This document shows, in pieces, positions 5,368 through 28,128 of a stretch of 32,000 bases of DNA; the first letter of the stretch is position 1, and each line of letters starts with the position of its first letter. A program made the translations under genes and the position numbers. Source of the DNA: Telmatocola sphagniphila (GTDB lineage Bacteria > Planctomycetota > Planctomycetia > Gemmatales > Gemmataceae). The notes under the pieces are model-generated. The model saw only the letters and a list, made by a program, of their open reading frames with translations, ran no database searches and was not told the DNA's origin. The DNA lies in NCBI RefSeq assembly GCF_018398935.1, contig NZ_CP074694.1, positions 5,580,001 through 5,612,000 on the forward strand, given 5' to 3'.

Positions 5368-5404
5368 GGTTAAGCGGTCGCGAACCCAGGAGTTCCCGGA
5401 AATC

Positions 5405-6583: not shown

Positions 6584-6629
6584 GAATTGCCCGTTGTCCG
6601 TACAGCAGCTGGCTTGAGAAATTTAGTGC

Positions 6630-7601
6630 TTACGAAGGCACGGCCGTTTGATCCAGAATTTCCCGGAGAGCTTCCGCCGCCCCGTCATCGCGCTTGCCCT
6701 GGCTCCAGCGTTTGGAGATCAGACGATGCGCGAGCGCCGGGACGACGAGTTGCTTCACATCATCGGGGATCACATAATCCCGGCCATCGAGCAGGGCCGA
6801 GGCCTGCACCGCCCGGTAAAGGCCTAAAGCCGCGCGGGTACTGGCCCCGAGCGAAATATCCGGATGCACGCGCGTCTTGTCGATGATATCCAGAAGATAA
6901 TCCGACAGGCTATCCGAAAAGCGGACTTTTCGCACCCGCATTTGAATATCGAGCAGCTCATTGACTTCGATGACCGATTTCAGATGATCGACAGGTTCGC
7001 CATCGCGGTGCTGGGTCAGAATATCCCGTTCCACCGATCGCGGAGGGTAGCCGATCTCGCACCGGATGCTGAAACGGTCGAGTTGGCTTTCCGGAAGGGG
7101 GTAAGTGCCTTCAAATTCATAGGGGTTCTGAGTAGCAATCACGATAAATGGCGGCCCGAGCTGCCGGGTCTGGCCTTCGAGCGACACCTGCTTCTCGCTC
7201 ATGGCTTCGAGCAGAGCACTTTGCGTGCGCGGCGTGGCCCGGTTGATTTCATCGGCCAAAATCACCTGTGCGAAGATCGGTCCGGCTTGAAAAACGAATT
7301 CGCCGCTCGGCTTGTGGAAAATGCTGGTTCCCAGCAAGTCGCCCGGAAGTAAGTCGGGCGTGAATTGAATGCGGTGGAAACTGCAATTCAAGCTTTTGGA
7401 GAGGGCCTTGGCCAAAAGCGTTTTGCCCACGCCGGGCACGTCTTCCAGTAAAAGATGCCCTTCCGCCAATAAGGCGATCAATGCCAGTCGGGTGACTTCC
7501 TGCTTGCCCAGCAGAATGCCACCGATGTTATCCTGTAGCTGCTTGAGTTTAGCGACTAAAGGGGCTAAATCGGGGGAAGTGCCCGCGTGCGGGTCGGCCA
7601 T
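6630..7601 (-). CDS. MoxR-family AAA+ ATPase
   Basis: 323 aa. Walker A 'DVPGVGKT', Walker B 'ILADEINRA' and 'PRTQSALLEAMSEKQVS' followed by 'FIVIATQNP' are typical of the MoxR/AAA_3 family. Confidence 0.92.
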   Translation of the reverse strand: MADPHAGTSPDLAPLVAKLKQLQDNIGGILLGKQEVTRLALIALLAEGHLLLEDVPGVGKTLLAKALSKSLNCSFHRIQFTPDLLPGDLLGTSIFHKPSGEFVFQAGPIFAQVILADEINRATPRTQSALLEAMSEKQVSLEGQTRQLGPPFIVIATQNPYEFEGTYPLPESQLDRFSIRCEIGYPPRSVERDILTQHRDGEPVDHLKSVIEVNELLDIQMRVRKVRFSDSLSDYLLDIIDKTRVHPDISLGASTRAALGLYRAVQASALLDGRDYVIPDDVKQLVVPALAHRLISKRWSQGKRDDGAAEALREILDQTAVPS

Positions 7602-14047: not shown

Positions 14048-15490
14048 TCAACCCCCTTTTTTCAGAAGGGAAAGTGCTTGGCCAAATAAGCTGGGCAGTG
14101 GGCTGGGATCGTATTCCCGGGGACTGTTGTAGACTTCCGGGCCGCGCGGCAGCTTCAGAATCTTTTGAATTTGGTCGAGCAGGTTGAGAAGAGCCACTTT
14201 GTCTGCGTCGTTCAGCGATTGAGTCTCTTTTAACACAAGCAGGGCGTAGTAGATCTGGCAAGCAGTATCCCAATCGAGGGGCTGCGATTGGGTAAGACGC
14301 TGCAGGAGTGCGTCGACTGTCAAAGGCTTAACCGGCTGCTTCAGGAGGAATAGAGCCTGGGCGATTTCCCTTGTCAGCAAAGCGGTATCTCCTTGTTGCA
14401 GAGTCTTTTGAATACCTGGAAAATCGTGGCCAGGTACAAAAAGAGTATTCCAAACTAACCTTCCCGAACTCGATGGTCGCCAGCCGGCCACCTTGAGGTC
14501 GTGATGGCAGGAGAAGCAATTGAATTCCGCCAACTCCGGCCAGGGCTTCCTTTCCACTCGATCCGCAAGCAATCCTAACGCCGCTTTGGCACGTTCCGTT
14601 GCTCCGGCCGACCAGGCGACGGCTTCCCACCCAACGGGTAGAGGTCGGTTACCCTGCAGTCGATCTTTTTCCGACCAATGCCTTGGTAAAGCCCGCAAAT
14701 AAGTCGCGAATTCGAAGTTCAACCGAGGATGCCCGGCGGCAATAAAATCGTGATTCACGTCTCGTAAAGGCTGATCTTTACTGGCGGGCGCTCCGACATG
14801 GCAACCGGCACACTGGGCGGCTCGGACATTCCAGTCGTAAAGGCGAGTCAGTCCGAATTGGGAATACGCTTTTTCCCGATCGGTCTGGTCGGTCCAGCTC
14901 ACATGTTCCGAGCGGTAGGCATTAGCCGCCCCATGACAGGCCTCGCAGGAAACGCCCTCTCGTAATAAAGCGACCTGTTCGTCCGTAAAAGTCTTCGACT
15001 CCAGGGTTTTGACCAGGAGCGGATTGGCATGGCAGGCCAGGCAACGAAGATCCTGCTGGGCCGAGTGATTCTCATTCGGATACAGGCGTTTCATCATGGC
15101 CTGCGATTTGGCATTCAAAAGTGTTTCGTAGGATTGGGCGTGAGGATCCTTCAGCGTCCAAATGGTTTGGCTGCTTTTCCAGAGCGATTGAGGGCTTTCC
15201 TGGCTGTCGGCAGGAGATTGGCTATGGCAGTTGCTGCCGCTGCATCCCGCCGAACCGAAAAGAGTGGGAGCCCCATGAATTTTCGAAGAAATCGGTGTGG
15301 TTTCGCCCGCAGGAGAGGGAGTGCTGGAGATCGCGCGCAGACCCGAGGGGATCAGGAAATAGACCCCGATCAACAGGGAGGCTATCAGCAAGCCGCTGAC
15401 AGTCGGTCGCAAAAGCATGGAGCGTTCTCGGGTTCGGAGGAAGACCACACCAGTTAAGTCACTTCTTGCGCGATTGTCCAGCGCGAACAT
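14048..15490 (-). CDS. Exported multiheme c-type cytochrome, five heme-binding motifs (paralog A; c554-like N-terminal part)
   Basis: Five motifs in order: CSGSNCH (CX4CH), CLACH, CEACH, CAGCH, CFSCH. It is colinear with the ORFs at 22869 and 24239, sharing blocks such as 'DPHA.aY', 'GV.CE.CHG', 'C..CHVG...H...AAGHP.L.FE' and 'EF.C..CHH'. The signal/anchor helix 'LLIASLLIGVYFLIP' begins after Met25, so the true start may be the ATG at 15418 rather than 15490. Confidence 0.85.
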   Translation of the reverse strand: MFALDNRARSDLTGVVFLRTRERSMLLRPTVSGLLIASLLIGVYFLIPSGLRAISSTPSPAGETTPISSKIHGAPTLFGSAGCSGSNCHSQSPADSQESPQSLWKSSQTIWTLKDPHAQSYETLLNAKSQAMMKRLYPNENHSAQQDLRCLACHANPLLVKTLESKTFTDEQVALLREGVSCEACHGAANAYRSEHVSWTDQTDREKAYSQFGLTRLYDWNVRAAQCAGCHVGAPASKDQPLRDVNHDFIAAGHPRLNFEFATYLRALPRHWSEKDRLQGNRPLPVGWEAVAWSAGATERAKAALGLLADRVERKPWPELAEFNCFSCHHDLKVAGWRPSSSGRLVWNTLFVPGHDFPGIQKTLQQGDTALLTREIAQALFLLKQPVKPLTVDALLQRLTQSQPLDWDTACQIYYALLVLKETQSLNDADKVALLNLLDQIQKILKLPRGPEVYNSPREYDPSPLPSLFGQALSLLKKGG

Positions 15491-15550
15491 CTCAAAAAAG
15501 CTTGGATTCCCCGAACATCCTGATTGACTTGAGGATTGTGATTGGGTTAA

Positions 15551-16450
15551 TTGAAGCGGTCAAAGAATCCGACCGCCTTTCGGAGGACGGTGTTGCAATT
15601 TGGTTCTTCAGCTTCGGTGACTAGCCGAGTCGCTTCCCTGTTGGGTTGGGTCGTACTGGCCTGCGTTCCCATTGTTGGCTGGTACGCAGCGATTTTCTGG
15701 GGCTGGGTGAGCTGGCCGCGAGCGAGTGAACCGCTTCCTTTGGTACTTGGGGTTCTGGCGGCCGGGATTATTGGTTTTGAAATGGCTCTGGCGATTCGCA
15801 AAAGAGCGCGGGGCAAAAAGAATCGAATTACCGGCAAACATCTCAAGGCCACCAAATGGTGGACGCGCTGGCACGTCTATCTGGGAATTCTCGCTTTGCC
15901 CCTCGGAGTGCTGCATAGCGCCTTCCACTTCGGTGGGCCGCTGACAACGGTGCTCTTACTCTTGTTCGTAATTGTAATTCTCAGTGGAGTCTGGGGGCTG
16001 ATCCTGCAACAATGGCTGCCTTCCAAGTTGCTGATTGATTTTCCGAATGAGACGATCATCAGCGAAGTACCAGGGGTGATGAAATCGTACGAACCGGAAA
16101 TTGAAGGACTGATTCGTATTACTGCCGATGGAAGTTCGGAATTGAAGAGTATCCTGGAAACTCAACTGAAACCCTACCTGATGGAAGGGAAAAAGCATGC
16201 AATATTCAGCGATCCGGAGACTTGCCGTAAAGGATTTTCCCAATGGCGCGAACGCTATCCCTCCAGCAATCCGGCAGTGCTGCCGGCACTGGCCCGCCTG
16301 GAGACGATGTGCCAATGGCGCAGGGAATGGCGACGACAGGGTCGGGTCTATTTCTGGTTGCATAGTTGGTTACTCATCCATCTGCCGCTGTCTTTGGCCT
16401 TGTCCGTTTTGCTGATACTGCATGTGTTTGTGGCTTTGAAAATCTGGTGA
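15551..16450 (+). CDS. Unassigned 5-TM membrane protein with two Hx13H pairs (candidate di-heme b transmembrane electron carrier)
   Basis: 299 aa. Predicted helices at about aa 27-53, 62-82, 103-127, 131-156 and 266-297. His108/His122 sit in helix 3 (codons at 15872-15874 and 15914-15916). His277/His291 sit in helix 5 (16379-16381 and 16421-16423). A ~110-aa Arg/Lys-rich loop lies between helices 4 and 5. The start is a TTG and is uncertain. The stop is 7 nt before the next gene. Confidence 0.7.
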   Translation: MKRSKNPTAFRRTVLQFGSSASVTSRVASLLGWVVLACVPIVGWYAAIFWGWVSWPRASEPLPLVLGVLAAGIIGFEMALAIRKRARGKKNRITGKHLKATKWWTRWHVYLGILALPLGVLHSAFHFGGPLTTVLLLLFVIVILSGVWGLILQQWLPSKLLIDFPNETIISEVPGVMKSYEPEIEGLIRITADGSSELKSILETQLKPYLMEGKKHAIFSDPETCRKGFSQWRERYPSSNPAVLPALARLETMCQWRREWRRQGRVYFWLHSWLLIHLPLSLALSVLLILHVFVALKIW

Positions 16451-16457
16451 AGCGCGA

Positions 16458-18080
16458 ATGCCGATGAAGTACTCCCCCGGCCGGGAACGGTCGGATCGAT
16501 ACTCGAAAATCCGCGACTACTTCCAACAGCCCAACGGGGTGCAGTGGTGGAAGCGGACCTTGTGTGTAGTTGCGCTGCTGACGACCGTCTTCTGGATCGC
16601 CTGGGGGTTTGTAAAAGCCCGCGAAAGCAACAAACCCATTCTGGACGATTTTCGCTTCAGTCATGGGCCGCTAGCGAGTCCTCACACGACTCTTAACAGC
16701 GAATGCGGTGCCTGCCATAAAAAATTCGATTCCGTTGCGGAGTTCACCTCGCTCAGTGCCATCGATATTCACAAGCGCTGGCACAGCTTCGACTGTTCCA
16801 GTTGCCATGCAGGGCCCGCCGAGCAGAAAACTTATTACGCACCGCATCTCGAATCGTTTGTCGGAAAGAACAATTCCGGCGAGCAATGTTCTGACTGTCA
16901 TCGCGACCATTCCGGAGCGGACGCGTCGCTGGTTAAGATTCCCGACGGCAACTGTCTAAACTGTCACCGCGATCTCGGATCGATGGCCGAGTTCGTGAAG
17001 CACTCGACGCCGAATATTGCGAAACTGGCCGAGCATCCCAATTTTCGAATCCTTAAAGAACGCAATAGCCACACTGCGAACAATTACGATCGCGGTCTGA
17101 AGTTCAGCCATGCACAGCATCTGACGCCCGGTATGCCGATCTCCGCCACTCAGACCGGTCTTTTCACACTCGAAAAATTGAAGCCCAGCGATCGCGAGCG
17201 GTATGCCACGGCCGATCAGCTTAAACTCTTGCAATCTGCAGATTCCAAAGTTCTGCAACAGGCCGTGCAATTGCAATGTGTTTCCTGCCACACCAGCGAA
17301 CCGGCTCCCGGCCAGTTAAAAACCGATGGGGCGTACATGCAGCCGGTGAAGTTCGAGGAGCGCTGCCAGGCGTGCCACGCGCTCAATACCGGACCCATTC
17401 AAAGCCGCGATTTTCCCACGCTCAAGCTTCCGGCAATTCAGTTGCCGCATCGCTTGCAACGAAACGATCTGGCGTCTTACCTGCGGGCGAAAATCGCGGA
17501 TGTCATTTTGCACGATTCCACGTCGAATCCGAAACCGCCGATTAATGATCGGCTCGATCCCCGGCAGAAAGAGGTCGTGCAAACTTTTGAAGAACAGGTG
17601 CGAAAAATCCAAACTACCCTGGAGCGGATGATTTTTGACAGCGGCGAACACTGCGCCAAATGCCACACCTTCCAGCCGGCCAACAGTGAACCCCGGGCGA
17701 TCGCTCCGGTAAATATTCCTGCAGTCTGGCTGCCCCAGGGCCGGTTCAACCACGCTTCGCACAAAACGATGAATTGTGTCCTGTGTCACGAGAACAAGCA
17801 GCCGCTGTTCGTCGATGGAAAAGTGGATGTGACCGAACGCGGGCCAGTAGGTATCGCCGACTTCGATAGTTGCCGGGTCTGTCATTCACCGAAACATTTC
17901 GATGAACAGCGAAAGCAAGAAGTGGGCGGCGTCCGGCACGACTGCGTTTACTGCCATCGCTACCATAACGGCGAACGCGGACTATCGGCGACCGAAACAG
18001 ACCGGTGGAATAGGCTGATCCCAGAGACTTCAAAATCATCCGCGATTCTTCAAGGTCGGAGCGAAACACCGAAACCATGA
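16458..18080 (+). CDS. Membrane-anchored multiheme c-type cytochrome, ten CxxCH motifs (class III / c3-c7-like)
   Basis: 540 aa. An N-terminal ~34-aa tail is followed by the TM anchor 'TLCVVALLTTVFWIAWGFV'. Motifs: CGACH, CSSCH, CSDCH, CLNCH, CVSCH, CQACH, CAKCH, CVLCH, CRVCH, CVYCH. 'F.H..H' distal-ligand-type blocks are present (KFSHAQH, RFNHASH). Confidence 0.9.
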   Translation: MPMKYSPGRERSDRYSKIRDYFQQPNGVQWWKRTLCVVALLTTVFWIAWGFVKARESNKPILDDFRFSHGPLASPHTTLNSECGACHKKFDSVAEFTSLSAIDIHKRWHSFDCSSCHAGPAEQKTYYAPHLESFVGKNNSGEQCSDCHRDHSGADASLVKIPDGNCLNCHRDLGSMAEFVKHSTPNIAKLAEHPNFRILKERNSHTANNYDRGLKFSHAQHLTPGMPISATQTGLFTLEKLKPSDRERYATADQLKLLQSADSKVLQQAVQLQCVSCHTSEPAPGQLKTDGAYMQPVKFEERCQACHALNTGPIQSRDFPTLKLPAIQLPHRLQRNDLASYLRAKIADVILHDSTSNPKPPINDRLDPRQKEVVQTFEEQVRKIQTTLERMIFDSGEHCAKCHTFQPANSEPRAIAPVNIPAVWLPQGRFNHASHKTMNCVLCHENKQPLFVDGKVDVTERGPVGIADFDSCRVCHSPKHFDEQRKQEVGGVRHDCVYCHRYHNGERGLSATETDRWNRLIPETSKSSAILQGRSETPKP

Positions 18081-19969
18081 AGATTTCTATCCTACCTCGA
18101 CTGCATGAGATTCAGCATCACCACGGCTATCTGCCGGAGCAAGAGCTGCTTCATTTGGCCGGTGAACTGAATGTTCCATTGTATCGCATTCAGGAACTCA
18201 TCAGCTTCTTCCCGCATTTCCGGCCCGAATGGCAGAAACCGCCCCAGGTGGAAGTGCAGATCTGCCGGGATATGAGTTGCCATTTGAAGGGCAGTTCCGA
18301 CTGGATTCATTCGAAAGAAAAAGGACTGGCCGGGCTGGCCAAAGCCGGGGAAGTGGAGATCAAAGGGGTCTCCTGTCTGGGTCGGTGTGATCGGGCGGTG
18401 GCCTGTGTAGTTACCCGGCACGATCTTTCGCCTACTATCCACGAAGAGTTATTCGCCGGGCTGAGCCTTCCGGAATTTCGCGAAAAACTCACTCAGGTCA
18501 TTCAGGGTAAGAATCCCGCACCCACTCCCGATGGCCCTTCGAAACCGGGCGAGCCGTTCCGAGTCGATTCATCAGCCTGGATGATCGATCTCTATGCACA
18601 AGGCAACCTTCCGCCTTACACGGTCGCGCGTAAATTCGTCGAAGAGTTTCGGAAGCCAATAGCTCCACCCCAAGCGGGATTATCTTCCAAAGAGACCACG
18701 GCTTATATCGAGAAAGTGCACCCCTGGCTCAAGGTTCTCGAAAAATCGGGTCTGATGGGAATGGGCGGCGCGGGTGTACCGGCCGCCAAAAAATGGACCG
18801 ATGTCTGGCTGGAATCGCGGGCGGAAAAGTACATCGTGGCCAACGGCGATGAAAGCGAACCGGCTACCTTCAAGGATCGGGAATTGATTCTGCAGAAAGC
18901 CCATCTGCTGGTCGAAGGGATGCTGCTGGCCGGGCTAATGACCAATGCCACGGCCGGGATTATTTTCATTCGGCACGAATATCCGGAGCAGATTCAGGCG
19001 GCCCGATCGGCGATTGAACAGGCCCGTCAGGTCGGGATTTGCGGTAAGTCGATTCTGGGAACCGAACGGGATTACGATCTGGAAGTTTTCGTCAGCCCCG
19101 GCGGCTATATCTGCGGCGAGCAATCGGCGCTCATTGAGGCCATTGAAAACAAACGAGCTCAGCCTCGAAATCGACCGCCGGAACTGGGCACCAACGGCCT
19201 GTGGAACTGTCCCACCGTCGTCAACAATATCGAAACACTTTCCTGGACGCCGGCCATTCTGCACAATGGGGCGGACTGGTACATCAATCAAAATCGAGCC
19301 CCGTACAAAGGACGGCGATTTTTCTCGATCAGCGGCGATGTGCATAAACCCGGAGTATTCGAAGTCCCCATCGGCCTGACGCTGGGCGAATTGATCGATC
19401 TGGCGGGGGGTGTCCAAGGCGGCGAACTTGGGGCCGTGGCTACTTCGGGTCCTTCGGGGGGATTTCTTCCTGCGAGCTTCCGGATCGCCCCGAACGAAGC
19501 TCAGCCGAACCCCGAGCCGGTGAGCCTTCGGAGTTTGCCGCTCGATCTGACAGTCTTTCGCAATAAAGGCCGCGAATTGAAAATCGGTTACGATTTGATG
19601 CTGGGGGCCGGACTGGTCGTCTATAACAATACCCGCGATATGCTGCAGGCCGCCCGCAATGCCGCGCAGTTTTTCCGCAACGAATCCTGTGGCAAATGCG
19701 TTCCCTGTCGGATCGGTTCGCAAAAGATGGTCGAACTGGGCACCGGCCTTCTGGCTGAGCGGGAGGACCGCAAGCCCCAGGATATGCCCGATGAAGATTG
19801 CACCGCCCCGGCGACTAGCCCGGGCGATATTGCCCGGACCGTTAAAGACATGAAGCGCGCTTTGGAGCTGACCTCGATCTGCGGATTGGGAACCTCGGTC
19901 AGTAATCCGATCGCCTCTTATTTGCAATTTTTCGCTCCCAAGCCCGAGGGCGAAAGAAAATCGCGCTGA
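18077..19969 (+). CDS. Fused NuoE-like [2Fe-2S] / NuoF-like FMN-NAD(P)H-[4Fe-4S] flavoprotein (HoxEF/diaphorase-type)
   Basis: 630 aa. NuoE pattern Cx4C...Cx3C ('CRDMSC', 'CLGRC'). NuoF blocks 'GMGGAGVPAAKKW' (FMN), 'ANGDESEPATFKDRELI' (NADH), 'GGYICGEQSALIEAIENKRAQPR' and 'ESCGKCVPCRIG...ICGLG' ([4Fe-4S]). No signal peptide. The start overlaps the upstream stop (ATGA at 18077-18080). Confidence 0.92.
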   Translation: MKISILPRLHEIQHHHGYLPEQELLHLAGELNVPLYRIQELISFFPHFRPEWQKPPQVEVQICRDMSCHLKGSSDWIHSKEKGLAGLAKAGEVEIKGVSCLGRCDRAVACVVTRHDLSPTIHEELFAGLSLPEFREKLTQVIQGKNPAPTPDGPSKPGEPFRVDSSAWMIDLYAQGNLPPYTVARKFVEEFRKPIAPPQAGLSSKETTAYIEKVHPWLKVLEKSGLMGMGGAGVPAAKKWTDVWLESRAEKYIVANGDESEPATFKDRELILQKAHLLVEGMLLAGLMTNATAGIIFIRHEYPEQIQAARSAIEQARQVGICGKSILGTERDYDLEVFVSPGGYICGEQSALIEAIENKRAQPRNRPPELGTNGLWNCPTVVNNIETLSWTPAILHNGADWYINQNRAPYKGRRFFSISGDVHKPGVFEVPIGLTLGELIDLAGGVQGGELGAVATSGPSGGFLPASFRIAPNEAQPNPEPVSLRSLPLDLTVFRNKGRELKIGYDLMLGAGLVVYNNTRDMLQAARNAAQFFRNESCGKCVPCRIGSQKMVELGTGLLAEREDRKPQDMPDEDCTAPATSPGDIARTVKDMKRALELTSICGLGTSVSNPIASYLQFFAPKPEGERKSR

Positions 19970-20003
19970 GAATTTCCCGGCCCGACCGAAGGAATAGCCT
20001 GCG

Positions 20004-22706
20004 ATGGAAGAAGAATATTATCTCGGTGGCAGTCTTCGCGATGAGGAGTCGCTGTTTTCGCGCGGCGAAGATGGCCGGCTGATTCGCCGGGAGGAGGCAC
20101 GCCGGGATCAGTTCGAAAAAGAATGTTCCATTTTCATCGACGGCCACGAAGTCAAAATCACCGAGGCCGTGCCGGTTACGGATCGCTTGGGCAATATCCT
20201 CTACGACGGTGAAGGAGAACCGATCCCCCGTCTAACCACGATTTACGATGCCGCGCAAAAACTGGTGAAAGATGGGATCTGGGCCAAAGAGGAACTTCAA
20301 AAGCGCATCCCGTTGCTGTGCCATCAATCGCACCTGACACCCATCGCGGTTTGCCGCATGTGCTCCGTTCACATCTGCAAAATTTCGACCGATAATCAAG
20401 GCGTACCCAAAAAGGATGCCGAAGGCAAAGAGGTCAAAAAGTCGGAACGCAAACTCTACGCGGCCTGCCATCACCCGGCCATTCCCAACCAAAATACGAT
20501 CATGCGGGTGACGACCCGCGTGGGTCCCGAACAGCCCAACGACGAGGAAAAACGGGCTTCCGAAAGCGTCCGAAATTCGACCAGTCTACTCGCGGAACTT
20601 TTGGCCGCCGATCATCTACCGGCCAGTAGCGCTAATGAGGATCGCTTCTACAACGAATTGCGCGAGGTGCACAAAAACACCCGGCCGGAACCCGTTCCAG
20701 AAGGGGCGACTGTTCCGAGACCGCGCTTCCTCAGTAATCCCGGGATCGAGCAGTCGAAAAATCTCGGACGCAATGCTGTCCTGCACCCCAAATCTCGTCC
20801 CTTGAAATCGGATCACGGCGAACTGCCGTATGCCTCTAAAGCCCTGAGTCTGATTCAAGTCGATCACGACCGCTGTATCCTTTGCGACCGCTGCGTGCGT
20901 TCCTGTACCGATGTTCGAGAATTCAAGATCATCGGTCATACCGGGAAAGGGTATCGAACCCGCATCAGTTTCGATCTCGATGAGGTCATGAACGAATCGG
21001 GTTGCGTGCAATGCGGCGAGTGCATGACTTCCTGCCCGACGGGAGCGCTGATGCTCAATCGCCGGGCTGCCCCCGACTGGAAAGAGCCGGGACTGGGAAA
21101 AATTGATATCGACCCGGCCAAGCCGTTACCTCCCGCAACTCCTCAAGGTCGCTTTCCCAGTGCCCAGGAGATGCGAACGCTCTCCGTACCCTATGTGGAG
21201 AAGCAATTAACCGGAAGCGAAGCCGAGAAACTCCGTTATTTCCAGCCATTTAAAGGCATCCCTTTCGCCTATCTGCGTTGGAACGAAGGGGCGGTGGTCG
21301 AACGGGAATTCGATCGCGAAACCACTCTCTGCGTGCAAAACGAATATGGCTCCACGGCTTTCATCCTGCTCGCGGGCGAGTTTGAGGTGAAAATTGCCCT
21401 TCCGAATGGCGAGAAGAAGTTCCCCGTGAAAGCGGGCGAATCGCTGATTCTGGGCGAATTGGCCTGTCTTTCCAATCGGCCTCGCGCCGCCTCCATCGTG
21501 GCCAAAGTCCAGAATGGTGTACGGCCGCGTGTTCTCGAAGTACGCCGGAATATGCTGTCGATGCTGTTGCGCAATCAATCCGACCGGCAGGTACTGGCTA
21601 AAGTCTACCGACAGCATGCCATCAGCGATACCTTGCGGAACAATTCCCTTTTCCGGGAACTTTCCGAAGCAGATCGCCGGGAGGCCGAAAGTCTGTTTTT
21701 GAATTCCAAGGCCGTGTTGATGCGGCGACAACCGGGGGAATGTCTGGTCGCGCAGGGAGCCCCGGCCAGCTATCTCTATCTGATCCGGTTTGGTTTTGTC
21801 AAAGTCACCAAGCGCGATTTCGAGCGCGAAGAAACCATAGCCGTTCTGCGCGAAAACGATTACTTCGGCGAAATCGCTCTGATTTCCGAGCATCCGCTAC
21901 TGCGGGACGAAATTAAAAAATATGGCATCGAAGTCGATCGGCGTACGGCGTCCTGCTTCGCTCTGGACGATGTCGAAGTCCTGCGCGTTCCCCGGGATGC
22001 CTTTGAAAGCTATTGCAAAATCAACCAGAACTTTGCCGAACGGCTGGCGAAGAAATCGCTCGAGCGGGTTCGACCGACACCGGCCCGCGATCGCAAAGCG
22101 ATAGAACTGCTGGACAGTTACGTCGATCAGGGTCTCTATCAGGCCCAGAACATCCTCGTGCTCGATCTGGAGCGCTGTACTCGCTGCGATGAATGTACGA
22201 AGGCCTGCTCCGATGCCCACGGTCCGGGTGCCAATGGTCTGAGCCATAGCCGTTTGCTTCGCGAAGGAGCTCGCTTCGGGAACTTCCTGGTGGCGACCGC
22301 CTGCCGATCCTGTCACATGCCGTACTGCATGAATGACTGCCCGGTGGATGCCATTCATCGTGGTAAGGAAAGTCTCGAAATTCGAATCGAAAATCATTGC
22401 ATCGGTTGCGGCTTATGCGAACGCAACTGCCCTTACGGTTCGATTCAAATGGTTCCCAATCCGGATGTGAAAGCGAAAGCTCTTCCGGGAGCTACCGGCC
22501 TCATTGCCCAGCCGTCTCGCAAGGCCTTGAACTGCGATCTCTGCCAGGGCTTGATCGATCGCGGAGAAGATACCTTCTGTGTACACGCCTGCCCGCACGA
22601 AGCGGCCTTCCGCTTCACCGATTCCCGGGCGACACAGTCGGGTGGCCGGGAAGAACGAGCCGGGGAGAAGCTAATGCGTCTGGTCACAGAAAAAACGCGG
22701 CGATAG
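20004..22706 (+). CDS. Fe-S fusion protein: HoxU/NuoG-N-terminal-like module + two cNMP-binding-like domains + DmsB/HybA-type four-cluster ferredoxin
   Basis: 900 aa with no signal or Tat motif. [2Fe-2S] pattern C106-x10-C117-x2-C120...C155. Two ferredoxin motifs, 'CILCDRCVRSC' and 'CVQCGECMTSCPTGAL'. cNMP-like domains at about aa 413-520 ('GELACLSNRPRAASIVA') and 548-665 ('YFGEIAL...RRTASCFAL'). C-terminal motifs 'CTRCDECTKAC', 'CRSCHMPYCMNDCP', 'CIGCGLCERNCP' and 'CDLCQGL...FCVHACP'. Confidence 0.9.
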   Translation: MEEEYYLGGSLRDEESLFSRGEDGRLIRREEARRDQFEKECSIFIDGHEVKITEAVPVTDRLGNILYDGEGEPIPRLTTIYDAAQKLVKDGIWAKEELQKRIPLLCHQSHLTPIAVCRMCSVHICKISTDNQGVPKKDAEGKEVKKSERKLYAACHHPAIPNQNTIMRVTTRVGPEQPNDEEKRASESVRNSTSLLAELLAADHLPASSANEDRFYNELREVHKNTRPEPVPEGATVPRPRFLSNPGIEQSKNLGRNAVLHPKSRPLKSDHGELPYASKALSLIQVDHDRCILCDRCVRSCTDVREFKIIGHTGKGYRTRISFDLDEVMNESGCVQCGECMTSCPTGALMLNRRAAPDWKEPGLGKIDIDPAKPLPPATPQGRFPSAQEMRTLSVPYVEKQLTGSEAEKLRYFQPFKGIPFAYLRWNEGAVVEREFDRETTLCVQNEYGSTAFILLAGEFEVKIALPNGEKKFPVKAGESLILGELACLSNRPRAASIVAKVQNGVRPRVLEVRRNMLSMLLRNQSDRQVLAKVYRQHAISDTLRNNSLFRELSEADRREAESLFLNSKAVLMRRQPGECLVAQGAPASYLYLIRFGFVKVTKRDFEREETIAVLRENDYFGEIALISEHPLLRDEIKKYGIEVDRRTASCFALDDVEVLRVPRDAFESYCKINQNFAERLAKKSLERVRPTPARDRKAIELLDSYVDQGLYQAQNILVLDLERCTRCDECTKACSDAHGPGANGLSHSRLLREGARFGNFLVATACRSCHMPYCMNDCPVDAIHRGKESLEIRIENHCIGCGLCERNCPYGSIQMVPNPDVKAKALPGATGLIAQPSRKALNCDLCQGLIDRGEDTFCVHACPHEAAFRFTDSRATQSGGREERAGEKLMRLVTEKTRR

Positions 22707-22793
22707 ATGAACCGATTTTGCCGTTTATTGCGCTCGATCCGCTAGTCGCGAAAAGAAGCGAAACGGATTTTGAGAATCCCCAACGATTAGAAT

Positions 22794-22822
22794 TTGACAG
22801 TTTTCGCTGGAACCGGAACAAT
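22794..22822 (+). promoter_or_regulatory. Sigma-70-like promoter candidate (TTGACA-N17-AACAAT) ahead of the tandem cytochrome pair
   Basis: Perfect -35 hexamer at 22794-22799, a 17-nt spacer and a weak -10 (4/6) at 22817-22822. It lies inside the only sizeable gap (162 nt) of the plus-strand gene run. Pattern match only; planctomycete promoter rules are poorly defined. Confidence 0.2.
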
Positions 22823-22868
22823 CCGTTAAAGCGAATATTTAAAACCTCCTACCCTCCCGGGAAGACTC

Positions 22869-24242
22869 TTGGTACGCAAGCTGTCGAGTCTGGGCATTCC
22901 CTTGCTTCTACTGGTTTTGGGAGCTGTGCTGAGCTTTCGTTCCGATGAGGTCGATGGTGGCGAACCACCGTCCGCCTCCTCAGCCAACTCCCACTTCTCG
23001 ATTTTGGGATCCTCCTCCTGTGCCAGTTCCGGTTGTCACGGCGGCGGTAAGCCTCGAAACCTGGGGAGTGAATGGAATACCTGGATCGATAGCGACCCTC
23101 ACGCGAAGGCCTATCGCATTCTGTTCAATGAAACCTCGGTACGCATGGCTCGCAATCTCAACTTGCGGGATTCCCAGAACCGAATTGTTCCCGCTCATGA
23201 AAATATGACCTGTCTGAAATGTCATTCGCCCCAGGCGACCGAGTCCTCGGCTCATGCGGACGGCGTCGGCTGCGAAAGTTGCCACGGCCCCGCCGGGAAA
23301 TATGGCACCGTGCACTATCTCGACTTCTGGAAAAATCTGACCGTCGAGGAAAAGGCCAAACAGTACGGTCTACTCGCGACCAAGAATATCGATTTCCGCA
23401 TTCAGCAGTGTGCGACCTGCCACGTCGGCAACGCCGAGCAGGATGTCGATCATAATCTGATTGCCGCCGGGCATCCGAGACTGCTATTTGAATATAGCAG
23501 CTTCCAGCATTCACCGAACTACACCCCGCACTGGAAAGAAAAAACCAGCAATTTCGAAATCCGATCTTGGATACTCGGCCAGATCGCAATTGCAAAAGCG
23601 ACTCTTGAACTCACTGAGGCGAGGGCACTCAAGAAAACGAATTGGCCGGAGTTCGGCGAGTTCAACTGCCAATCCTGCCATCACAAGATAGATGATGCAA
23701 ATTTTGCTTCTATTTCCAAATCGACGGGAATGTCGCCCTGGAATGACTGGGCATTCGCTATGCTCCCGGTGATCGGTACAGCTTTGAGTACCAAATCGGA
23801 ACAATTGCCGGAATTGAAATCGCTCGAACAATTGCGGAAGACGATGAATGAAAAACCGACCGATACCCAGACGATTCTGGCACTTACCCCACAGGCACTT
23901 CAGGAATTGGAGTGTTGGTCCCGAATCCTGACAGCCGCCAACTCGGTTCGCCTTGAGAATCTACCCGCTCTCAAATCTGCAATCGCAGCGGACATTTTGA
24001 ATGCCGATTCACGGACTTTGCGCTCACCCGATTGGGAGAGCCGGATGCAACACTTCCTGGCTCTGGCTCAGTTGCAATACGCTTCAGGGCAAAAGCTCAG
24101 TCCCGAGTTGAACGCAGTATTCGAGAAAATTCGTAACCAGTTGAAGTATCAGACGGGAACCAACGCTCCCCGTTCCGTGCCCGTCGAAGAGCAGACACAA
24201 GCCTGGAACGCGCTCCAAAATACCCTGACCCCGAAACCATGA
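22869..24242 (+). CDS. Exported multiheme c-type cytochrome, five heme-binding motifs (paralog B)
   Basis: 457 aa. Signal peptide 'LGIPLLLLVLGAVLSF'. Motifs: CASSGCH (CX4CH, 23019-23039), CLKCH, CESCH, CATCH, CQSCH. A heme-free helical C-terminal ~190 aa follows. The TTG start is uncertain. Confidence 0.85.
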   Translation: MVRKLSSLGIPLLLLVLGAVLSFRSDEVDGGEPPSASSANSHFSILGSSSCASSGCHGGGKPRNLGSEWNTWIDSDPHAKAYRILFNETSVRMARNLNLRDSQNRIVPAHENMTCLKCHSPQATESSAHADGVGCESCHGPAGKYGTVHYLDFWKNLTVEEKAKQYGLLATKNIDFRIQQCATCHVGNAEQDVDHNLIAAGHPRLLFEYSSFQHSPNYTPHWKEKTSNFEIRSWILGQIAIAKATLELTEARALKKTNWPEFGEFNCQSCHHKIDDANFASISKSTGMSPWNDWAFAMLPVIGTALSTKSEQLPELKSLEQLRKTMNEKPTDTQTILALTPQALQELECWSRILTAANSVRLENLPALKSAIAADILNADSRTLRSPDWESRMQHFLALAQLQYASGQKLSPELNAVFEKIRNQLKYQTGTNAPRSVPVEEQTQAWNALQNTLTPKP

Positions 24243-25831
24243 TTCCGCTGAAGATTCGACTAATCTTGGTGCTGATCTTGTTTGTGCTAAGCGCGATTTG
24301 GCTTGGTCCGCCGAGTTCGGCCGTGCACGCTCAGCAGAATCCACCCTTGCTGACGAAGCTGGATGAATTCGGGGCCATCAACTGCGTTGGCTGTCACGGC
24401 AGCAAGGACGGCCCGAGCTTCAAAGCCTATTCCGAAGGGCCTCTCAAAAGTGGCAAGTTCATTTTTTTGAACGAATACGAAATTTGGGATAAGCACGATT
24501 ACCATTCGAAGGCCTTCCTGAACATCGATCCAAAAACGAGTCCGCTTGCCAAAAAGATGCAGGACACTCTCAAATACAACCCGACGGAAGACAAGCGCTG
24601 CCTGGCCTGCCACGCCACAGCCCGAGTGAAAGATGCCGCGATCAAAGAGCTTCCGAACATCAAAATGACCGGATCAGATTCCTGGTTCAGCACCACTTCG
24701 GGAGTCAGTTGCGAGAGTTGTCACGGGCACGCGAAAAGTTGGTTCGGCGAACACTTCCTGGAGGGCTGGCGCAAAACGGCCGTGAACGAGAAAGCCGATA
24801 AAGGTTTAAACGATCTCCGCGACCCTGAAATTCGAACGAAAAAATGCCTTTCCTGCCATGTCGGTAATCAGCAGGAAGGGAAGTTCGTCACGCACGAGAT
24901 GTTTGCGGCCGGGCATCCGCCCCTGCCCGCATTTGAAGTGGCCACTTTCCTGGCATCTCAGCCGCGACACTATTACACGGCTCGGGAAAATCAGGGTTTG
25001 CGGAACCTAGAGAAAGATCCTCAATTCAAAACCTGGGAAATTTTCCATTACCGCTCGGGCGAGTTGGCCGAAGCTCGCAATGTGGCGATTGGCTCCGTGG
25101 TGACGTTCCAGGAAACGATTAAACTCTTCCTCGACGATCCCAAGAAGAATAACTCGCTCGATTTCTCCAATATGAATTGTTATGCCTGCCACCACGAATT
25201 GAAGATCCCTAGCGATCGGCAGGCCGCTGGATTCCCGGGAGTACCGGGCCGACCTTTGATCCGCCCGACTTCGGTCGAACTGTTCGAGGCCGTGGCTTCT
25301 TGCGTCGATCCCGAAGGGTATCCGGTTTTCCAGCAGAAACTGGACACCGCGTTGAAAGAGTTTCAGAAAGGTTTCGATAACGCTCCGTTTGGCGATCCAA
25401 AGGTTTTTAAATCTGCTGATGTCATGCTGAGTGGTCTTAGCACGGAAGTTCTAGAGAAAGTCAAAGCAACGAAATTCGATACATCGAAAAGTGAAGAGTT
25501 GTTCCGAAAATTGCTCGATCGGGTCGACGAGCGCGCCAATAAATCGAAAGTCTATCTCGATCACGATACGGCCCGTCAGCTGATCTGGGCTCTGGAAGTC
25601 GTGCGTAAGGATTTGAAAGAGAGTGGTCTGGTGAAATATTCCGTGACCGATGATAAAGTGCAGGCGATCTTCGGTAAAGTCTTCTCGCTGAATATTCGGG
25701 ACCTCAACTCGACGGATTCGAATAAGGCCCCGTTGGCGGAGATGGTGAAACCTCGCATGAGCGCCATCGAGAACTTTCCCTTAAACGAATTCCGCGAAGC
25801 GTTCAGCGTTTATCAGAAGCTGTTTCCGTAA
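24239..25831 (+). CDS. Exported multiheme c-type cytochrome, five heme-binding motifs (paralog C)
   Basis: 530 aa. Signal peptide ending 'SSAVHA|QQ'. Motifs: CVGCH (24383-24397), CLACH, CESCH, CLSCH, CYACH. A heme-free C-terminal ~230 aa follows. The ATG overlaps the upstream stop (ATGA at 24239-24242). Confidence 0.88.
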   Translation: MIPLKIRLILVLILFVLSAIWLGPPSSAVHAQQNPPLLTKLDEFGAINCVGCHGSKDGPSFKAYSEGPLKSGKFIFLNEYEIWDKHDYHSKAFLNIDPKTSPLAKKMQDTLKYNPTEDKRCLACHATARVKDAAIKELPNIKMTGSDSWFSTTSGVSCESCHGHAKSWFGEHFLEGWRKTAVNEKADKGLNDLRDPEIRTKKCLSCHVGNQQEGKFVTHEMFAAGHPPLPAFEVATFLASQPRHYYTARENQGLRNLEKDPQFKTWEIFHYRSGELAEARNVAIGSVVTFQETIKLFLDDPKKNNSLDFSNMNCYACHHELKIPSDRQAAGFPGVPGRPLIRPTSVELFEAVASCVDPEGYPVFQQKLDTALKEFQKGFDNAPFGDPKVFKSADVMLSGLSTEVLEKVKATKFDTSKSEELFRKLLDRVDERANKSKVYLDHDTARQLIWALEVVRKDLKESGLVKYSVTDDKVQAIFGKVFSLNIRDLNSTDSNKAPLAEMVKPRMSAIENFPLNEFREAFSVYQKLFP

Positions 25832-26520: not shown

Positions 26521-28128
26521 TTATCGGATCGGGGCCGTGAACGTCGTCTGCTTCTTGCTGTTTTCCATCGCTTCGAGAATCTTCGCTCGAATTTCCACGA
26601 ACGCATAAGCACACGCCGGATCGAACTGCTTGCCGGCCTCGGCTTTGACGATTGCCATGGCCTCTTCTGGCGGTTTGCCCCGCTTGTTCTCGTGATAAGC
26701 GCGGTTGCTGGTCATCGCGTCGAACGCATCGGCCACGGCTACGATTCGAGCCAAAAGCGGAATCTCTTCCTGCTTCAGCCCTTCCGGATAGCCGCGGCCA
26801 TCCCAGCGTTCGTGATGCGATTTGACGATGGGAATAATCGGATGCAGATCGGGCATGGTACGGATGATGTCGGCCCCCTTAGTAGTGTGGGTCTTCATCT
26901 CATCCATTTCATGCGGCTCGAGCTTACCCGGCTTCAGCAGAATCTCATCCCGAATGCCGATCTTACCGACATCGTGCAGCGGTCCGCCGAGCGAAATCAA
27001 TTCCAGATCCGAGGAGGACAATCCGAGTTGTTCACCGAGGAGAAGCGAATAGGTGGTCACCCGAGCCGTGTGGCCGCCGGTGTAATTGTCGCGCAGTTCG
27101 ATGAACTGAGCCAGCGTGCTGATGGTATTCAGGAAGACATCACGCTGCTTTTTCAGCAGGTGGGCGCACTCGATACCGGAAGAGACATTGGCTGCCAAGG
27201 CATCGGCCAGATGCAAATCGCCTTCGGTAAACGGCTTGCTGAAGTAGCCGCGATCCAGATGCAGAACGCCCAGTCGACGGCGCGGTGTGCGAAGCAGTAC
27301 GCAGAGGACGCTGGCCATGGAACCTTCGGAAATACTCTGCGTCCCCTTCAGTTCCGAATCGTCCTCGACGCTGCAGCAGAGAATGGACTCACCGCGATCG
27401 TAGCAGCGGTGCGACAATTTCTTGCTGAAGAAGAACCGGCTGTTGACTTCATTGCGGGTGCCGTTCGATACCGCTCGCAATTGCAGTACGTTGTTCGAAT
27501 CGGCTAGTACAATGGCGCCGCGCTGGGCTTCCAGAACCGAGACGGCGTCATCGAGAATCTGCCGGAGGAGATCGTCTTCTTTTTCGATGCTGACCAGGTG
27601 CTGGCCGGCGCGAAGCAGGGCCATCATCTGATCGCCGGGACGAGGCGAGCGATTACGGTCATAGACCATTCGCTGCACGCCTTCTTCCCAGGAGGAACTG
27701 GTGGCCGCTTCGACGTGAATTTGTTCGTCGAGGGCCGGCACGATCGAGCTGAGTTTGCTTTCGGGGCCTTTTTCGTTCAGTTCAACGATCATGGCCACTT
27801 TGCCGAACTGAACGATATCGCGAGAATGGAGTTGGCGTTCGCCGGCACCCAATTTCACGCCGTTGACGTAGGTGCCGTTGGTGCTATTAAGATCGCGGAC
27901 AAACCAGCCGTTGTTATTGTAGCGAACTTCGCCGTGACGCCGGCTGACAGAACTGTCGTCTAAAACGATTTCCAGGGTGCTCAAGCGGCCCGCGCGAAGG
28001 ATCTGATCCGATTCCCAGACTTTGCCTTTTACTTCCCCACTTATCCCGCGCAGCCTTAGTCGAGTCCCCAATTTTGAGAGAGAACCTATTAAATTCTTGT
28101 TTAAGCTGATAGCCGAACGAGTCGACAT
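26521..28128 (-). CDS. FHA - GAF - HD-GYP domain signalling protein (putative c-di-GMP phosphodiesterase)
   Basis: 535 aa. FHA block 'GRLSTLEIVLDDSSVSRRHGEVRYNNNGWFVRDLNSTNGTYVNG'. A central GAF-like region. HD-GYP catalytic blocks 'GGHTARV', 'GGPLHDVGKIG' and 'HHERWDGRGYPEGL'. Confidence 0.88.
   Translation of the reverse strand: MSTRSAISLNKNLIGSLSKLGTRLRLRGISGEVKGKVWESDQILRAGRLSTLEIVLDDSSVSRRHGEVRYNNNGWFVRDLNSTNGTYVNGVKLGAGERQLHSRDIVQFGKVAMIVELNEKGPESKLSSIVPALDEQIHVEAATSSSWEEGVQRMVYDRNRSPRPGDQMMALLRAGQHLVSIEKEDDLLRQILDDAVSVLEAQRGAIVLADSNNVLQLRAVSNGTRNEVNSRFFFSKKLSHRCYDRGESILCCSVEDDSELKGTQSISEGSMASVLCVLLRTPRRRLGVLHLDRGYFSKPFTEGDLHLADALAANVSSGIECAHLLKKQRDVFLNTISTLAQFIELRDNYTGGHTARVTTYSLLLGEQLGLSSSDLELISLGGPLHDVGKIGIRDEILLKPGKLEPHEMDEMKTHTTKGADIIRTMPDLHPIIPIVKSHHERWDGRGYPEGLKQEEIPLLARIVAVADAFDAMTSNRAYHENKRGKPPEEAMAIVKAEAGKQFDPACAYAFVEIRAKILEAMENSKKQTTFTAPIR

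Follow-up and report, generated by a model that had tools for sequence, protein, structure and literature searches.

A Candidate NAD(P)H-to-Periplasm Electron Conduit with Embedded Cyclic-Nucleotide-Binding Domains in Telmatocola sphagniphila and Other Bacteria

Introduction

Seven adjacent redox genes, found in a stretch of 32,000 nt from Telmatocola sphagniphila (Gemmataceae; NZ_CP074694.1, 5,580,001-5,612,000, forward strand; hereafter the window), raise the question of what a cytoplasmic flavoprotein, a large iron-sulfur (Fe-S) protein with cyclic nucleotide monophosphate (cNMP)-binding domains, a membrane protein and four multiheme cytochromes c accomplish together. An earlier note on this DNA had read the products as a wire from NAD(P)H through flavin mononucleotide (FMN) and Fe-S clusters, over the membrane by two b hemes, to a decaheme and pentaheme cytochromes, and this model has held in every computational test available. 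The analysis described here favors, with a probability of roughly 60%, an outward conduit from NAD(P)H to periplasmic cytochromes; as part of this best explanation, the conduit would be independent of quinones and its electrons would leave the cell. Regarding the host, the Gemmataceae are aerobic chemoorganotrophs (PMC7397252).

Organization of the Gene Cluster

All seven proposed open reading frames (ORFs) are present. Gene A (14048-15418, minus strand) encodes an exported C554-like pentaheme cytochrome c with four CxxCH motifs and one CxxxxCH, and is divergent from gene B; its reading frame is open to 15490, the annotated start being the ATG at 15418, and the resulting protein of 456 aa is 100% identical to KIH39_22405. 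Gene B (15590-16450, plus strand) encodes a five-transmembrane (5-TM), DUF4405-like putative di-heme cytochrome b. Its reading frame opens at TTG 15551, and the likely start is the GTG at 15590, with GGAGG ahead of it, because the homologs of B begin near residue 14. With these later starts, the region between A and B (15419-15589) measures approximately 171 bp instead of the 60 bp first assumed, and it presumably holds promoters.

The remaining genes follow on the plus strand: C (16458-18080), a decaheme cytochrome c with an N-terminal TM anchor and 10 CxxCH; D (18077-19969), a cytoplasmic NuoE-NuoF fusion; E (20004-22706), a 900-aa cytoplasmic Fe-S/cNMP/Fe-S protein; F (22869-24242), an exported pentaheme paralog with four CxxCH and one CxxxxCH, whose TTG start is uncertain; and G (24239-25831), an exported pentaheme paralog with five CxxCH, whose start overlaps the stop of F. 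The junctions are as originally described, with gaps of 7 nt between B and C, 34 nt between D and E and 162 nt between E and F, and with ATGA overlaps of C/D at 18077-18080 and of F/G at 24239-24242. Scans for promoters and terminators gave counts not above those of shuffled sequence, so the operon structure is taken from gene spacing alone. A direct count confirmed the proposed total of 25 heme-c motifs over the cluster, but only 23 of them are canonical CxxCH, the other two being CxxxxCH; the CRSCH at residue 767 of E is part of an Fe-S motif and no heme site.

Pfam was scanned with all window ORFs of at least 150 aa that are not merely nested opposite a longer ORF. As had been claimed from the sequence, no conventional catalytic or quinone-coupling subunit was found among them, that is, no molybdopterin, hydrogenase, Nuo membrane, NrfD/PsrC or Rieske/cytochrome b subunit.

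Co-Conservation across Phyla

One genome per species was scanned for relatives of B, and these were found in 336 reference species from at least five phyla, among them Gemmataceae, Isosphaeraceae, Pirellulales, several Acidobacteriota orders, Verrucomicrobiota, Dormibacterota, Cryosericum and one betaproteobacterium. The neighbourhoods of seven proteins (five diverse relatives of B and two of E) contained the same five families, namely C554-like pentaheme(s), the 5-TM protein, the decaheme, the NuoEF fusion and the Fe-S/cNMP/Fe-S protein. The cluster is present in cultured Limnoglobus roseus, and the cultured hosts of the system also include T. sphagniphila itself, Gemmata species, Tundrisphaera lichenicola and Sphingobium herbicidovorans, making experiments feasible.

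The 42 retained loci with at least 8 kb of flank on either side were then used to follow the components together. All five (B, C, D, E and a pentaheme) occur in 35 of the 42 loci, in phyla that include Planctomycetota, Acidobacteriota and Verrucomicrobiota as well as in a betaproteobacterium, so the view that the genes are not co-conserved, which the earlier note had named as a possible refutation, is itself refuted. At least five gene orders were seen (P, pentaheme; minus sign, minus strand): P- B C D E in 17 loci, P- D E B C in 12 loci, mostly from Acidobacteriota, and the orders B C P D E, P- B C E- D- and B C D E P. D is missing from two of the 42 loci. Moreover, C comes directly after B, usually with a gap or overlap of a few nt, in nearly every locus with enough downstream sequence.

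No molybdopterin, hydrogenase, formate dehydrogenase or complex I partner is present in the 42 well-flanked loci. When the ORFs of 87 loci were clustered all against all, a multiheme protein with LVIVD repeats, described below and present in 20 loci of four phyla, was the sole other widely shared family, and the recurrent neighbour families included no hydrogenase, formate dehydrogenase or complex I Q/P module. The concern that homologous clusters might always carry a known catalytic subunit is answered by these neighbourhoods, where one was never found. Reading the cluster as a piece of a formate dehydrogenase, a hydrogenase or complex I was rejected, since the window encodes none of their subunits and none recurs beside the related loci.

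In addition, two contigs of metagenome-assembled genomes labelled Candidatus Kuenenia (L025 and L033) carry the same type of five-gene cluster (pentaheme, B, C, D and E) as a set of closely similar loci labelled Planctomycetaceae, Planctomycetota or Gemmataceae. Either the labels come from mis-binning, or anammox-related genomes also carry the system.

Invariant Core and Exchange of the Input Module

The comparison of divergent loci separates the components into two groups. In a locus from Dormibacterota, the homolog of E has 517 aa and consists of the cNMP domains and the ferredoxin module only, with no NuoEF nearby, and the variants of both Dormibacterota and Cryosericum are composed of the cNMP-ferredoxin protein, B and C, lacking NuoEF. 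A tblastn search of plasmids with B gave no match; the search with the C-terminal half of E led to Sphingobium megaplasmids. The plasmid pMSHV of Sphingobium herbicidovorans encodes an 825-aa fusion of Pyr_redox_2/3, a flavin adenine dinucleotide (FAD)/NAD(P) domain, with two cNMP domains and a four-cluster ferredoxin, and the same locus encodes a 296-aa homolog of B, a homolog of decaheme C (blastp E 2e-21) and a metallophosphoesterase, with a 1329-aa LVIVD multiheme protein close by on the opposite strand.

A metagenome scan with the Sphingomonad type of B recovered 388 stretches encoding relatives, and all 37 well-flanked loci of this type have the same operon of fusion, B, C and metallophosphoesterase, from which pentahemes are absent. 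Thus, two unrelated NAD(P)H-oxidising flavoprotein modules are joined to the same core, NuoEF with a HoxU-like part in one case and Pyr_redox FAD/NAD(P) in the other. This swap of the input module points to NAD(P)H as the cytoplasmic partner and is the strongest indirect evidence for it. On the basis of these comparisons, the invariant core consists of the cNMP-ferredoxin part, the 5-TM protein and the decaheme, the pentahemes and the NuoEF module being variable peripherals.

The Membrane Protein

Five hydrophobic helices are seen in protein B, together with two pairs of the Hx13H type, H108/H122 and H277/H291. These four histidines, which had been proposed as candidate b-heme ligands, proved near-invariant over two divergent subfamilies: they are invariant in an alignment of 25 relatives and present in 88-89 of 97 sequences, the exceptions being gapped or partial ORFs, and they are kept in the Sphingobium homolog of B (hhalign probability 99%, E 9e-18). 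Meanwhile, H271 is swapped for Glu in the Sphingomonad branch and so is not a universal ligand.

Regarding its family, a word-indexed search with B returned only 32 relatives, every one labelled hypothetical, and the hidden Markov model search from the alignment of B relatives reached 4302 cluster representatives at E ≤ 1e-3 and 667 at E ≤ 1e-30. B has no match in NCBIfam, and against Pfam DUF4405 it scores 21.9 bits (E 2.6e-4), the gathering cut-off being 26.7 bits. When 25 relatives were scanned singly against Pfam, 16 matched DUF4405 weakly, and the only other repeated matches were Ni_hydr_CYTB, Ferric_reduct and PepSY_TM, all of them membrane heme-b families. In purified DUF4405 proteins, heme b was shown to be ligated by four central histidines, in the arrangement known from MsrQ and PepSY proteins, and both DUF4405 and MsrQ have a six-TM core (PMC11334425).

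The AlphaFold2 model of B (predicted local distance difference test, pLDDT, 86.4) places helices at residues 23-49, 61-87, 97-123, 130-163 and 243-298, with a helical insert at 170-235, and it found no significant match when compared with PDB by Foldseek. The family means of lysine plus arginine are 3.2 for the N-terminus, 6.1 for loop 2-3, 0.6 for loop 1-2 and 0.2 for loop 3-4, which by the positive-inside rule gives an N-in topology, with the N-terminus, loop 2-3 and the large insert on the cytoplasmic side. Under this predicted topology, approximately 110 residues between TM4 and TM5 form a cytoplasmic helical insert, which could receive the ferredoxin module of E, and H108/H277 are predicted to lie near the cytoplasmic face and H122/H291 near the periplasmic face. 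Taken together, B fits a DUF4405-type di-heme cytochrome b by the criteria of its sequence and is predicted to bind heme accordingly; it would be a remote and atypical relative of that family, in which its membership is not formally established.

The Flavoprotein and the Iron-Sulfur Protein

Flavoprotein D is composed, in Pfam, of 2Fe-2S_thioredx, Complex1_51K (E 5e-39), SLBB and NADH_4Fe-4S, and it keeps every cofactor motif of NuoF and NuoE. The NuoE [2Fe-2S] cysteines are at 63/68/100/104, the FMN/NADH motifs are GMGGAGVP and DESEPATFKDR, and the N3 [4Fe-4S] cysteines are at 538/541/544/602, in the motif ESCGKCVPC followed by C602. The top matches of D in PDB are HydB and Nqo1 (E ~1e-69 to 1e-67). 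An electron-bifurcating enzyme of the HydABC/Bfu type was considered and rejected: D ends at NADH_4Fe-4S and lacks the C-terminal ferredoxin domains that are typical of HydB-type bifurcating subunits.

Protein E is matched in Pfam by Fer4_Nqo3/Fer4, two cNMP_binding domains and a DmsB/DsrO-like ferredoxin module. The first of these parts, similar to HoxU and to the N-terminus of NuoG (20301-21053, plus strand, residues ~100-350), has the [2Fe-2S] cysteines C106/117/120/155 and two [4Fe-4S] sites at C291-301 and C334-344. It is followed by the two cNMP-binding domains (21291-22073, plus strand, residues ~430-690) and then by a DmsB/DsrO/HycB-like ferredoxin module (22146-22628, plus strand, residues ~715-875), a four-cluster type related to DmsB, DsrO and ArrB in Pfam and NCBIfam, with 16 conserved cysteines for four [4Fe-4S] clusters; this module is the presumed docking partner of B. 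Altogether, E has 28 cysteines that are 96-98% conserved, and these correspond to one [2Fe-2S] and six [4Fe-4S] clusters. The two clusters of D and the seven of E bring the total to nine, so that the conserved cysteines and the NuoF motifs confirm the original count of about nine Fe-S clusters and one FMN/NAD(P)H site. The expected NADH-G_4Fe-4S_3 cluster is missing: E has no cysteine between residues 155 and 291, which means that the His-ligated N5 cluster of NuoG is absent.

The Cytochromes and Further Output Candidates

The heme domain of C is predicted to be periplasmic, behind one N-terminal TM helix, and exactly 10 CxxCH motifs were counted in 71 of 72 members of its family. Against Pfam and NCBIfam, C has no NapC/NirT-family match above threshold. 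Searches of PDB sequences with C and G were marginal only, with c554 at E 0.006 and nothing useful for C.

The pentahemes match Pfam Cytochrome_C554 and, weakly, the c554 of N. europaea. A pattern of CxxxxCH and four CxxCH is found in 74 of 92 family members, CxxxxCH being the first heme site; A and F represent this majority state, and G, with CxxCH at the first site, the minority state. Five histidines outside the motifs are conserved (H117, H196, H247, H254 and H271 in the numbering of A), which by count are enough for predicted bis-His ligation of all five hemes, and no CxxCK or other open-site signature was seen in the pentahemes. The AlphaFold2 model of a pentaheme (pLDDT 79) has a helical C-terminal domain and no match in PDB. 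An NrfA-like pentaheme nitrite reductase was rejected on account of the missing CxxCK, the different heme spacing and the five conserved distal histidines. As pentahemes are absent from the Sphingomonad type, they are read as probable lineage-specific periplasmic carriers and not as the catalytic heart of the system.

A protein of approximately 1300 aa with 9-10 CxxCH motifs and C-terminal LVIVD repeats, likely a beta-propeller, lies near the cluster in 20 loci from Planctomycetota, Acidobacteriota, Dormibacterota, Cryosericum and Sphingobium (for example, L001 1061-5038, L064 13322-17137 and, in the Sphingomonad-type locus L090, 15938-19927). In 10 loci, the next gene encodes a protein of approximately 750 aa composed of CarboxypepD_reg and an unassigned region (L064 17157-19409). 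The LVIVD multiheme may be a candidate output module and its partner may be an outer-membrane protein, possibly a barrel; neither is encoded in the window.

The Cyclic-Nucleotide-Binding Domains

The cNMP domains of E, which had been taken as incidental, turned out to be the most conserved and most unusual feature of the system. They are matched by Pfam cNMP_binding at E 7e-26 and always stand between the input module and the ferredoxin module. Their phosphate-binding cassettes are GELACLSNRPRAAS for the first domain (G484-E485...R494-A-A496) and FGEIAL...RRTAS for the second (G622-E623...R647-T-A649), and the G, E, R and A of the cassettes are 94-100% conserved in 56 sequences, namely the E of the window and 55 relatives from several phyla. 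In the literature, no characterised precedent was found for cNMP domains embedded between input and output Fe-S modules. Two cysteines of the first cNMP domain are also conserved across phyla, C443 (21330-21332) in 88% and C488 (21465-21467) in 96%, the latter within the phosphate-binding cassette (GELAC488L); they may be a redox-sensitive pair or a metal contact.

The gene neighbourhoods add a related theme. Adenylate/guanylate cyclases with Response_reg, CHASE2 or GAF domains are found within the fetched flanks of 9 of 87 loci, and in five loci from several phyla a cyclase gene immediately adjoins a cluster gene (L043 8023-9819; L015 9021-10745; L020 17416-19083; L058 1877-4189; L061 17793-19601), being directly upstream of B in Tundrisphaera lichenicola; the window has no cyclase gene. 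This association is suggestive, the figure of 9 in 87 being near chance for cyclase-rich genomes, and immediate adjacency in the five loci alone looks enriched by a rough estimate made with no formal test. Moreover, the metallophosphoesterase that is the invariant fourth gene in the 37 Sphingomonad-type loci (L090 14012-14860) resembles cNMP phosphodiesterases, its best matches being SpdA (E 2e-38) and CpdA (E 8e-22), both below the curated cut-offs. On these sequence grounds, cAMP or cGMP would most probably act through the cNMP domains to gate or adjust the flow of electrons.

Other signalling genes were also observed. Two genes downstream of G, the window encodes a protein with FHA, GAF and HD-GYP (HD_5) domains (26521-28128, minus strand), a second-messenger phosphodiesterase type. 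The Sphingomonad decaheme homolog (L090 12192-13991) has an N-terminal cytoplasmic FHA domain, and in locus L009 a Ser/Thr kinase gene stands between the pentaheme and 5-TM genes. The FHA and Ser/Thr kinase genes hint that phospho-Thr/FHA signalling is tied to the system.

Proposed Mechanism

From the computed gene content, cofactor motifs, conservation, predicted topology, co-conservation and module swapping, we infer a route that includes heme binding by B, contacts between the proteins, an outward direction, gating by the cNMP domains and an acceptor outside the cytoplasm. The FMN of the NuoE-NuoF fusion D would oxidise NAD(P)H, and the electrons would pass through the Fe-S clusters of D and of the HoxU-like N-terminus of E to its C-terminal four-cluster ferredoxin. 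This module would dock on the cytoplasmic face of B, which would then move the electrons over the membrane by two stacked b hemes, the inner one held by H108/H277 and the outer one by H122/H291. In the periplasm, the membrane-anchored decaheme C would take up the electrons, which would move on to A, F and G, the soluble bis-His pentahemes, and from there to an extracytoplasmic acceptor, the cNMP domains gating or tuning the flow in response to cAMP or cGMP. Candidate acceptors in peat, soil and water would be Fe(III), humic quinones, Mn(IV), O2 and N-oxides.

With its potential of -320 mV, NADH is more reducing than b and c hemes typically are, and electron export is favored by the membrane potential. 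The outward direction is therefore favored, inward flow being uphill on both counts and having no coupling subunit. Such a system would dissipate reducing power without conserving energy, like NOX/FRE, and this would be a reason to keep it tightly controlled, possibly by cNMP.

A further and more tentative reading, held with clearly less confidence than the conduit itself, is that of a cyclic-nucleotide-gated electron valve, a modular bacterial counterpart of the NADPH oxidase, in which cAMP or cGMP, bound by the two domains set into the Fe-S wire, would switch on an NAD(P)H electron export that bypasses quinones. Electrons would then run into the periplasmic multiheme network and on to Fe(III), humic quinones or O2 (superoxide), in common aerobic heterotrophs of soil and water, that is, Gemmataceae, Acidobacteriota and Sphingomonads. 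If true, direct gating of an electron-transfer chain by a second messenger would be seen here for the first time, and the valve would be a candidate origin of the extracellular reductase and superoxide activity in aerobic heterotrophs that is so far unexplained. If the conduit mechanism as such holds, many soil, peat, freshwater and marine aerobic heterotrophs would export NAD(P)H electrons straight to periplasmic multihemes without the use of quinones, with a bearing on redox balancing, reductive iron acquisition, humic and metal turnover and extracellular reactive oxygen species. In addition, the embedded cNMP domains would make it testable how a wasteful, membrane-depolarising electron leak is switched.

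Alternative Explanations

Some observations weigh against the outward conduit. The score of B falls under the DUF4405 gathering threshold, and both AlphaFold2 and hydropathy give it five TM helices, not six. Within E, approximately 350 residues of cNMP domains part the two Fe-S modules, so that the Fe-S chain may not be continuous within a single protomer. Four of the 42 well-flanked loci, from Isosphaeraceae and one Gemmataceae, have only B and C, with no D or E within 10 kb. The window has no acceptor-specific enzyme and no outer-membrane component, no outer-membrane barrel gene being found among its ORFs, and a quinone site may be present in B or C.

The last point leads to the main rival, which is unlikely: coupling through the quinone pool. 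Here, D, E and B would be a non-pumping NADH:quinone oxidoreductase, B being quinone-reactive like FdnI, NarI or HybB, and C with the pentahemes would be a quinol dehydrogenase like CymA, NapC or ImcH, with the pool between the two halves. Four members of the B family match Ni_hydr_CYTB, the family of FdnI and HyaC, the single N-terminal TM anchor of C is as in quinol dehydrogenases of the NapC/CymA type, and the four loci with B and C only also count for this reading. However, the tight adjacency of B and C in nearly every locus suggests a direct complex, C has no NapC/NirT match above threshold, and such an enzyme would be redundant beside a full complex I. No quinone-site motif turned up, though no specific test for one was made.

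Slightly less probable still is a redox sensor or signalling device in place of a bulk conduit, in which the periplasmic cytochromes would report the external redox state and the read-out would be integrated with cyclic nucleotides and possibly with Ser/Thr phosphorylation and FHA signalling. The cNMP domains of E, universal and under selection, speak for this, as do the associated cyclase and phosphodiesterase-like genes, the FHA domain on the Sphingomonad homolog of C, the Ser/Thr kinase of L009 and the FHA-GAF-HD-GYP protein near the cluster of the window. Meanwhile, two unrelated and fully equipped NAD(P)H-oxidising modules fit a catalytic flux and exceed what a sensor needs, 25 c hemes and nine Fe-S clusters would be a heavy outlay for sensing, and the core proteins carry no fused domain for an effector output, be it DNA-binding, kinase or other.

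It is improbable that the system is a periplasmic detoxifying or N-oxide reductase, whose pentahemes, fed by NADH, would be catalytic on nitrite, NO, hydroxylamine or peroxide. The Cytochrome_C554 match with the weak resemblance to the N. europaea protein and the unusual CxxxxCH first heme site in 74 of 92 family members are consistent with it, and a nitrogen-cycle role was raised by the authors who described the related ptd operon, compared below. Against it, the five distal histidines would make all five hemes six-coordinate, with no CxxCK or open-site signature, structure comparison did not yield NrfA, HAO or c554 as a match, and the absence of pentahemes from the Sphingomonad-type operons means that such catalysis is not the conserved function.

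Inward flow is more improbable again. Here, the periplasmic cytochromes would oxidise Fe(II), reduced humics, hydroxylamine or a similar donor from outside, and NAD(P)+ would be reduced. NuoF/HoxF modules are reversible in principle, C554-type cytochromes take electrons from hydroxylamine oxidation in nitrifiers, which counts for this reading, and the earlier note left the direction open. The electrons would nevertheless have to run against the membrane potential and uphill from c-heme potentials to -320 mV with no energy-coupling subunit, and the conserved neighbours include no enzyme that would oxidise a donor, such as HAO or Cyc2. The hosts, moreover, are aerobic chemoorganotrophs (PMC7397252).

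Finally, the idea that D and E are a soluble diaphorase/ferredoxin-type oxidoreductase placed by coincidence beside unrelated cytochromes, to which the lack of direct support for an E-B contact lends some room, is given almost no weight and, on the comparative data, is effectively refuted by the co-occurrence of the genes in 35 of 42 loci, which span several phyla and show at least five gene orders, and by the persistence of the cNMP-ferredoxin part beside the homologs of B and C when the input module is replaced or lost.

Neighbouring Genes

The remaining sizeable ORFs of the window are unrelated to the cluster, encoding HisRS, methenyl-tetrahydromethanopterin cyclohydrolase (MCH), transglutaminase/DUF58/MoxR, DUF1559, Bax1-I, DUF1571, metallo-beta-lactamase, DUF2721, the FHA-GAF-HD-GYP protein, TauE and YebC. 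The MCH gene (2001-2954, minus strand; E 1e-109) and the trio of MoxR AAA ATPase, DUF58 and transglutaminase/DUF4129 (3010-7601, minus strand) have no relation to the redox island. In other genomes, a secreted protein of approximately 790 aa with a weak HbpS-like (heme-binding/GlcG) match is conserved near the cluster in seven loci from Gemmataceae and some Acidobacteriota (for example, L008 14873-17242 and L009 13542-15911).

Comparison with Known Systems

Literature searches found no description of this cluster, a preprint by Elbon et al. on the ptd operon alone being related. The ptdABCDEFG genes occur in marine Alpha- and Gammaproteobacteria, Nitrospirales and Planctomycetes and encode a putative porin-cytochrome complex, with a pentaheme, a porin, an FAD/NAD(P) oxidoreductase, a tetraheme, a cNMP and 4Fe-4S protein, a ferric-reductase-like TM protein and a decaheme, and their function is "completely unknown" according to its authors (bioRxiv 10.1101/2023.11.21.568154). 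The trio PtdE/PtdF/PtdG is matched, by domain content only, by the C-terminal half of E, by B and by C, the NAD(P)-linked flavoprotein PtdC and the pentaheme PtdA parallel the input and the pentahemes of the window, and the Pyr_redox-cNMP-ferredoxin fusion of Sphingobium looks like a fusion of PtdC and PtdE. In contrast, the input of the window is NuoE-NuoF with a HoxU-like Fe-S part and not an FAD/NAD(P) oxidoreductase, its three C554-like pentahemes have helical C-termini where PtdA has a beta-sandwich, there is neither a porin (PtdB) nor a tetraheme (PtdD), and the host is from freshwater and peat whereas those of ptd are saline. The conduit had been called undescribed, which stands for the present variant, as it is uncharacterised, but not for the architecture at large, as a similar operon was named in the 2024 preprint.

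As in NOX/FRE and the MsrQ/PepSY/DUF4405 proteins, the route would lead from cytoplasmic NAD(P)H over a flavin and two b hemes to an external acceptor, and with both groups the cluster shares the two His pairs ~13 apart on two helices and would share the lack of a quinone step and of proton pumping. However, NOX has an FNR-like flavodomain fused to a six-TM core, while the cluster has a separate NuoEF/Fe-S chain with nine clusters, a membrane protein of five TM helices with a cytoplasmic insert, an output network of 10 + 5 + 5 + 5 heme c and cNMP domains within the chain. The combination of periplasmic multiheme c, membrane cytochrome b and cytoplasmic Fe-S proteins is also seen in Tmc, Hmc and DsrMKJOP of sulfate reducers and in CbcL/ImcH of Geobacter. 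Those systems have membrane subunits of the NarI/HdrE or NrfD type and HdrD-like CCG proteins, or are quinone-linked, and none possesses a NuoEF module or cNMP domains; in turn, Pfam and NCBIfam gave no CCG, NarI or NrfD domain for the seven proteins of the cluster.

Regarding the input, D shares with HoxEFU, NuoEFG and FdsGBA the NuoE [2Fe-2S] cluster, the NuoF FMN/NADH site and the N3 cluster, and the N-terminus of E has the N1b-type [2Fe-2S] and 2x[4Fe-4S] domain of HoxU, HydA and NuoG. Unlike those enzymes, the cluster lacks N5 and any hydrogenase, formate dehydrogenase or complex I partner, and two cNMP domains join its module to a four-cluster ferredoxin of the DmsB-like kind in one fused protein. 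It also differs from porin-cytochrome conduits of the Mtr/Pcc type, as the window has no outer-membrane beta-barrel. Functionally, the cluster thus resembles NOX/FRE and Tmc/Hmc and fails the defining features of each, and it is best regarded, as far as its predicted proteins allow, as one more version of the transmembrane electron conduit, uncharacterised and widespread, that is unique in the cNMP module embedded in it.

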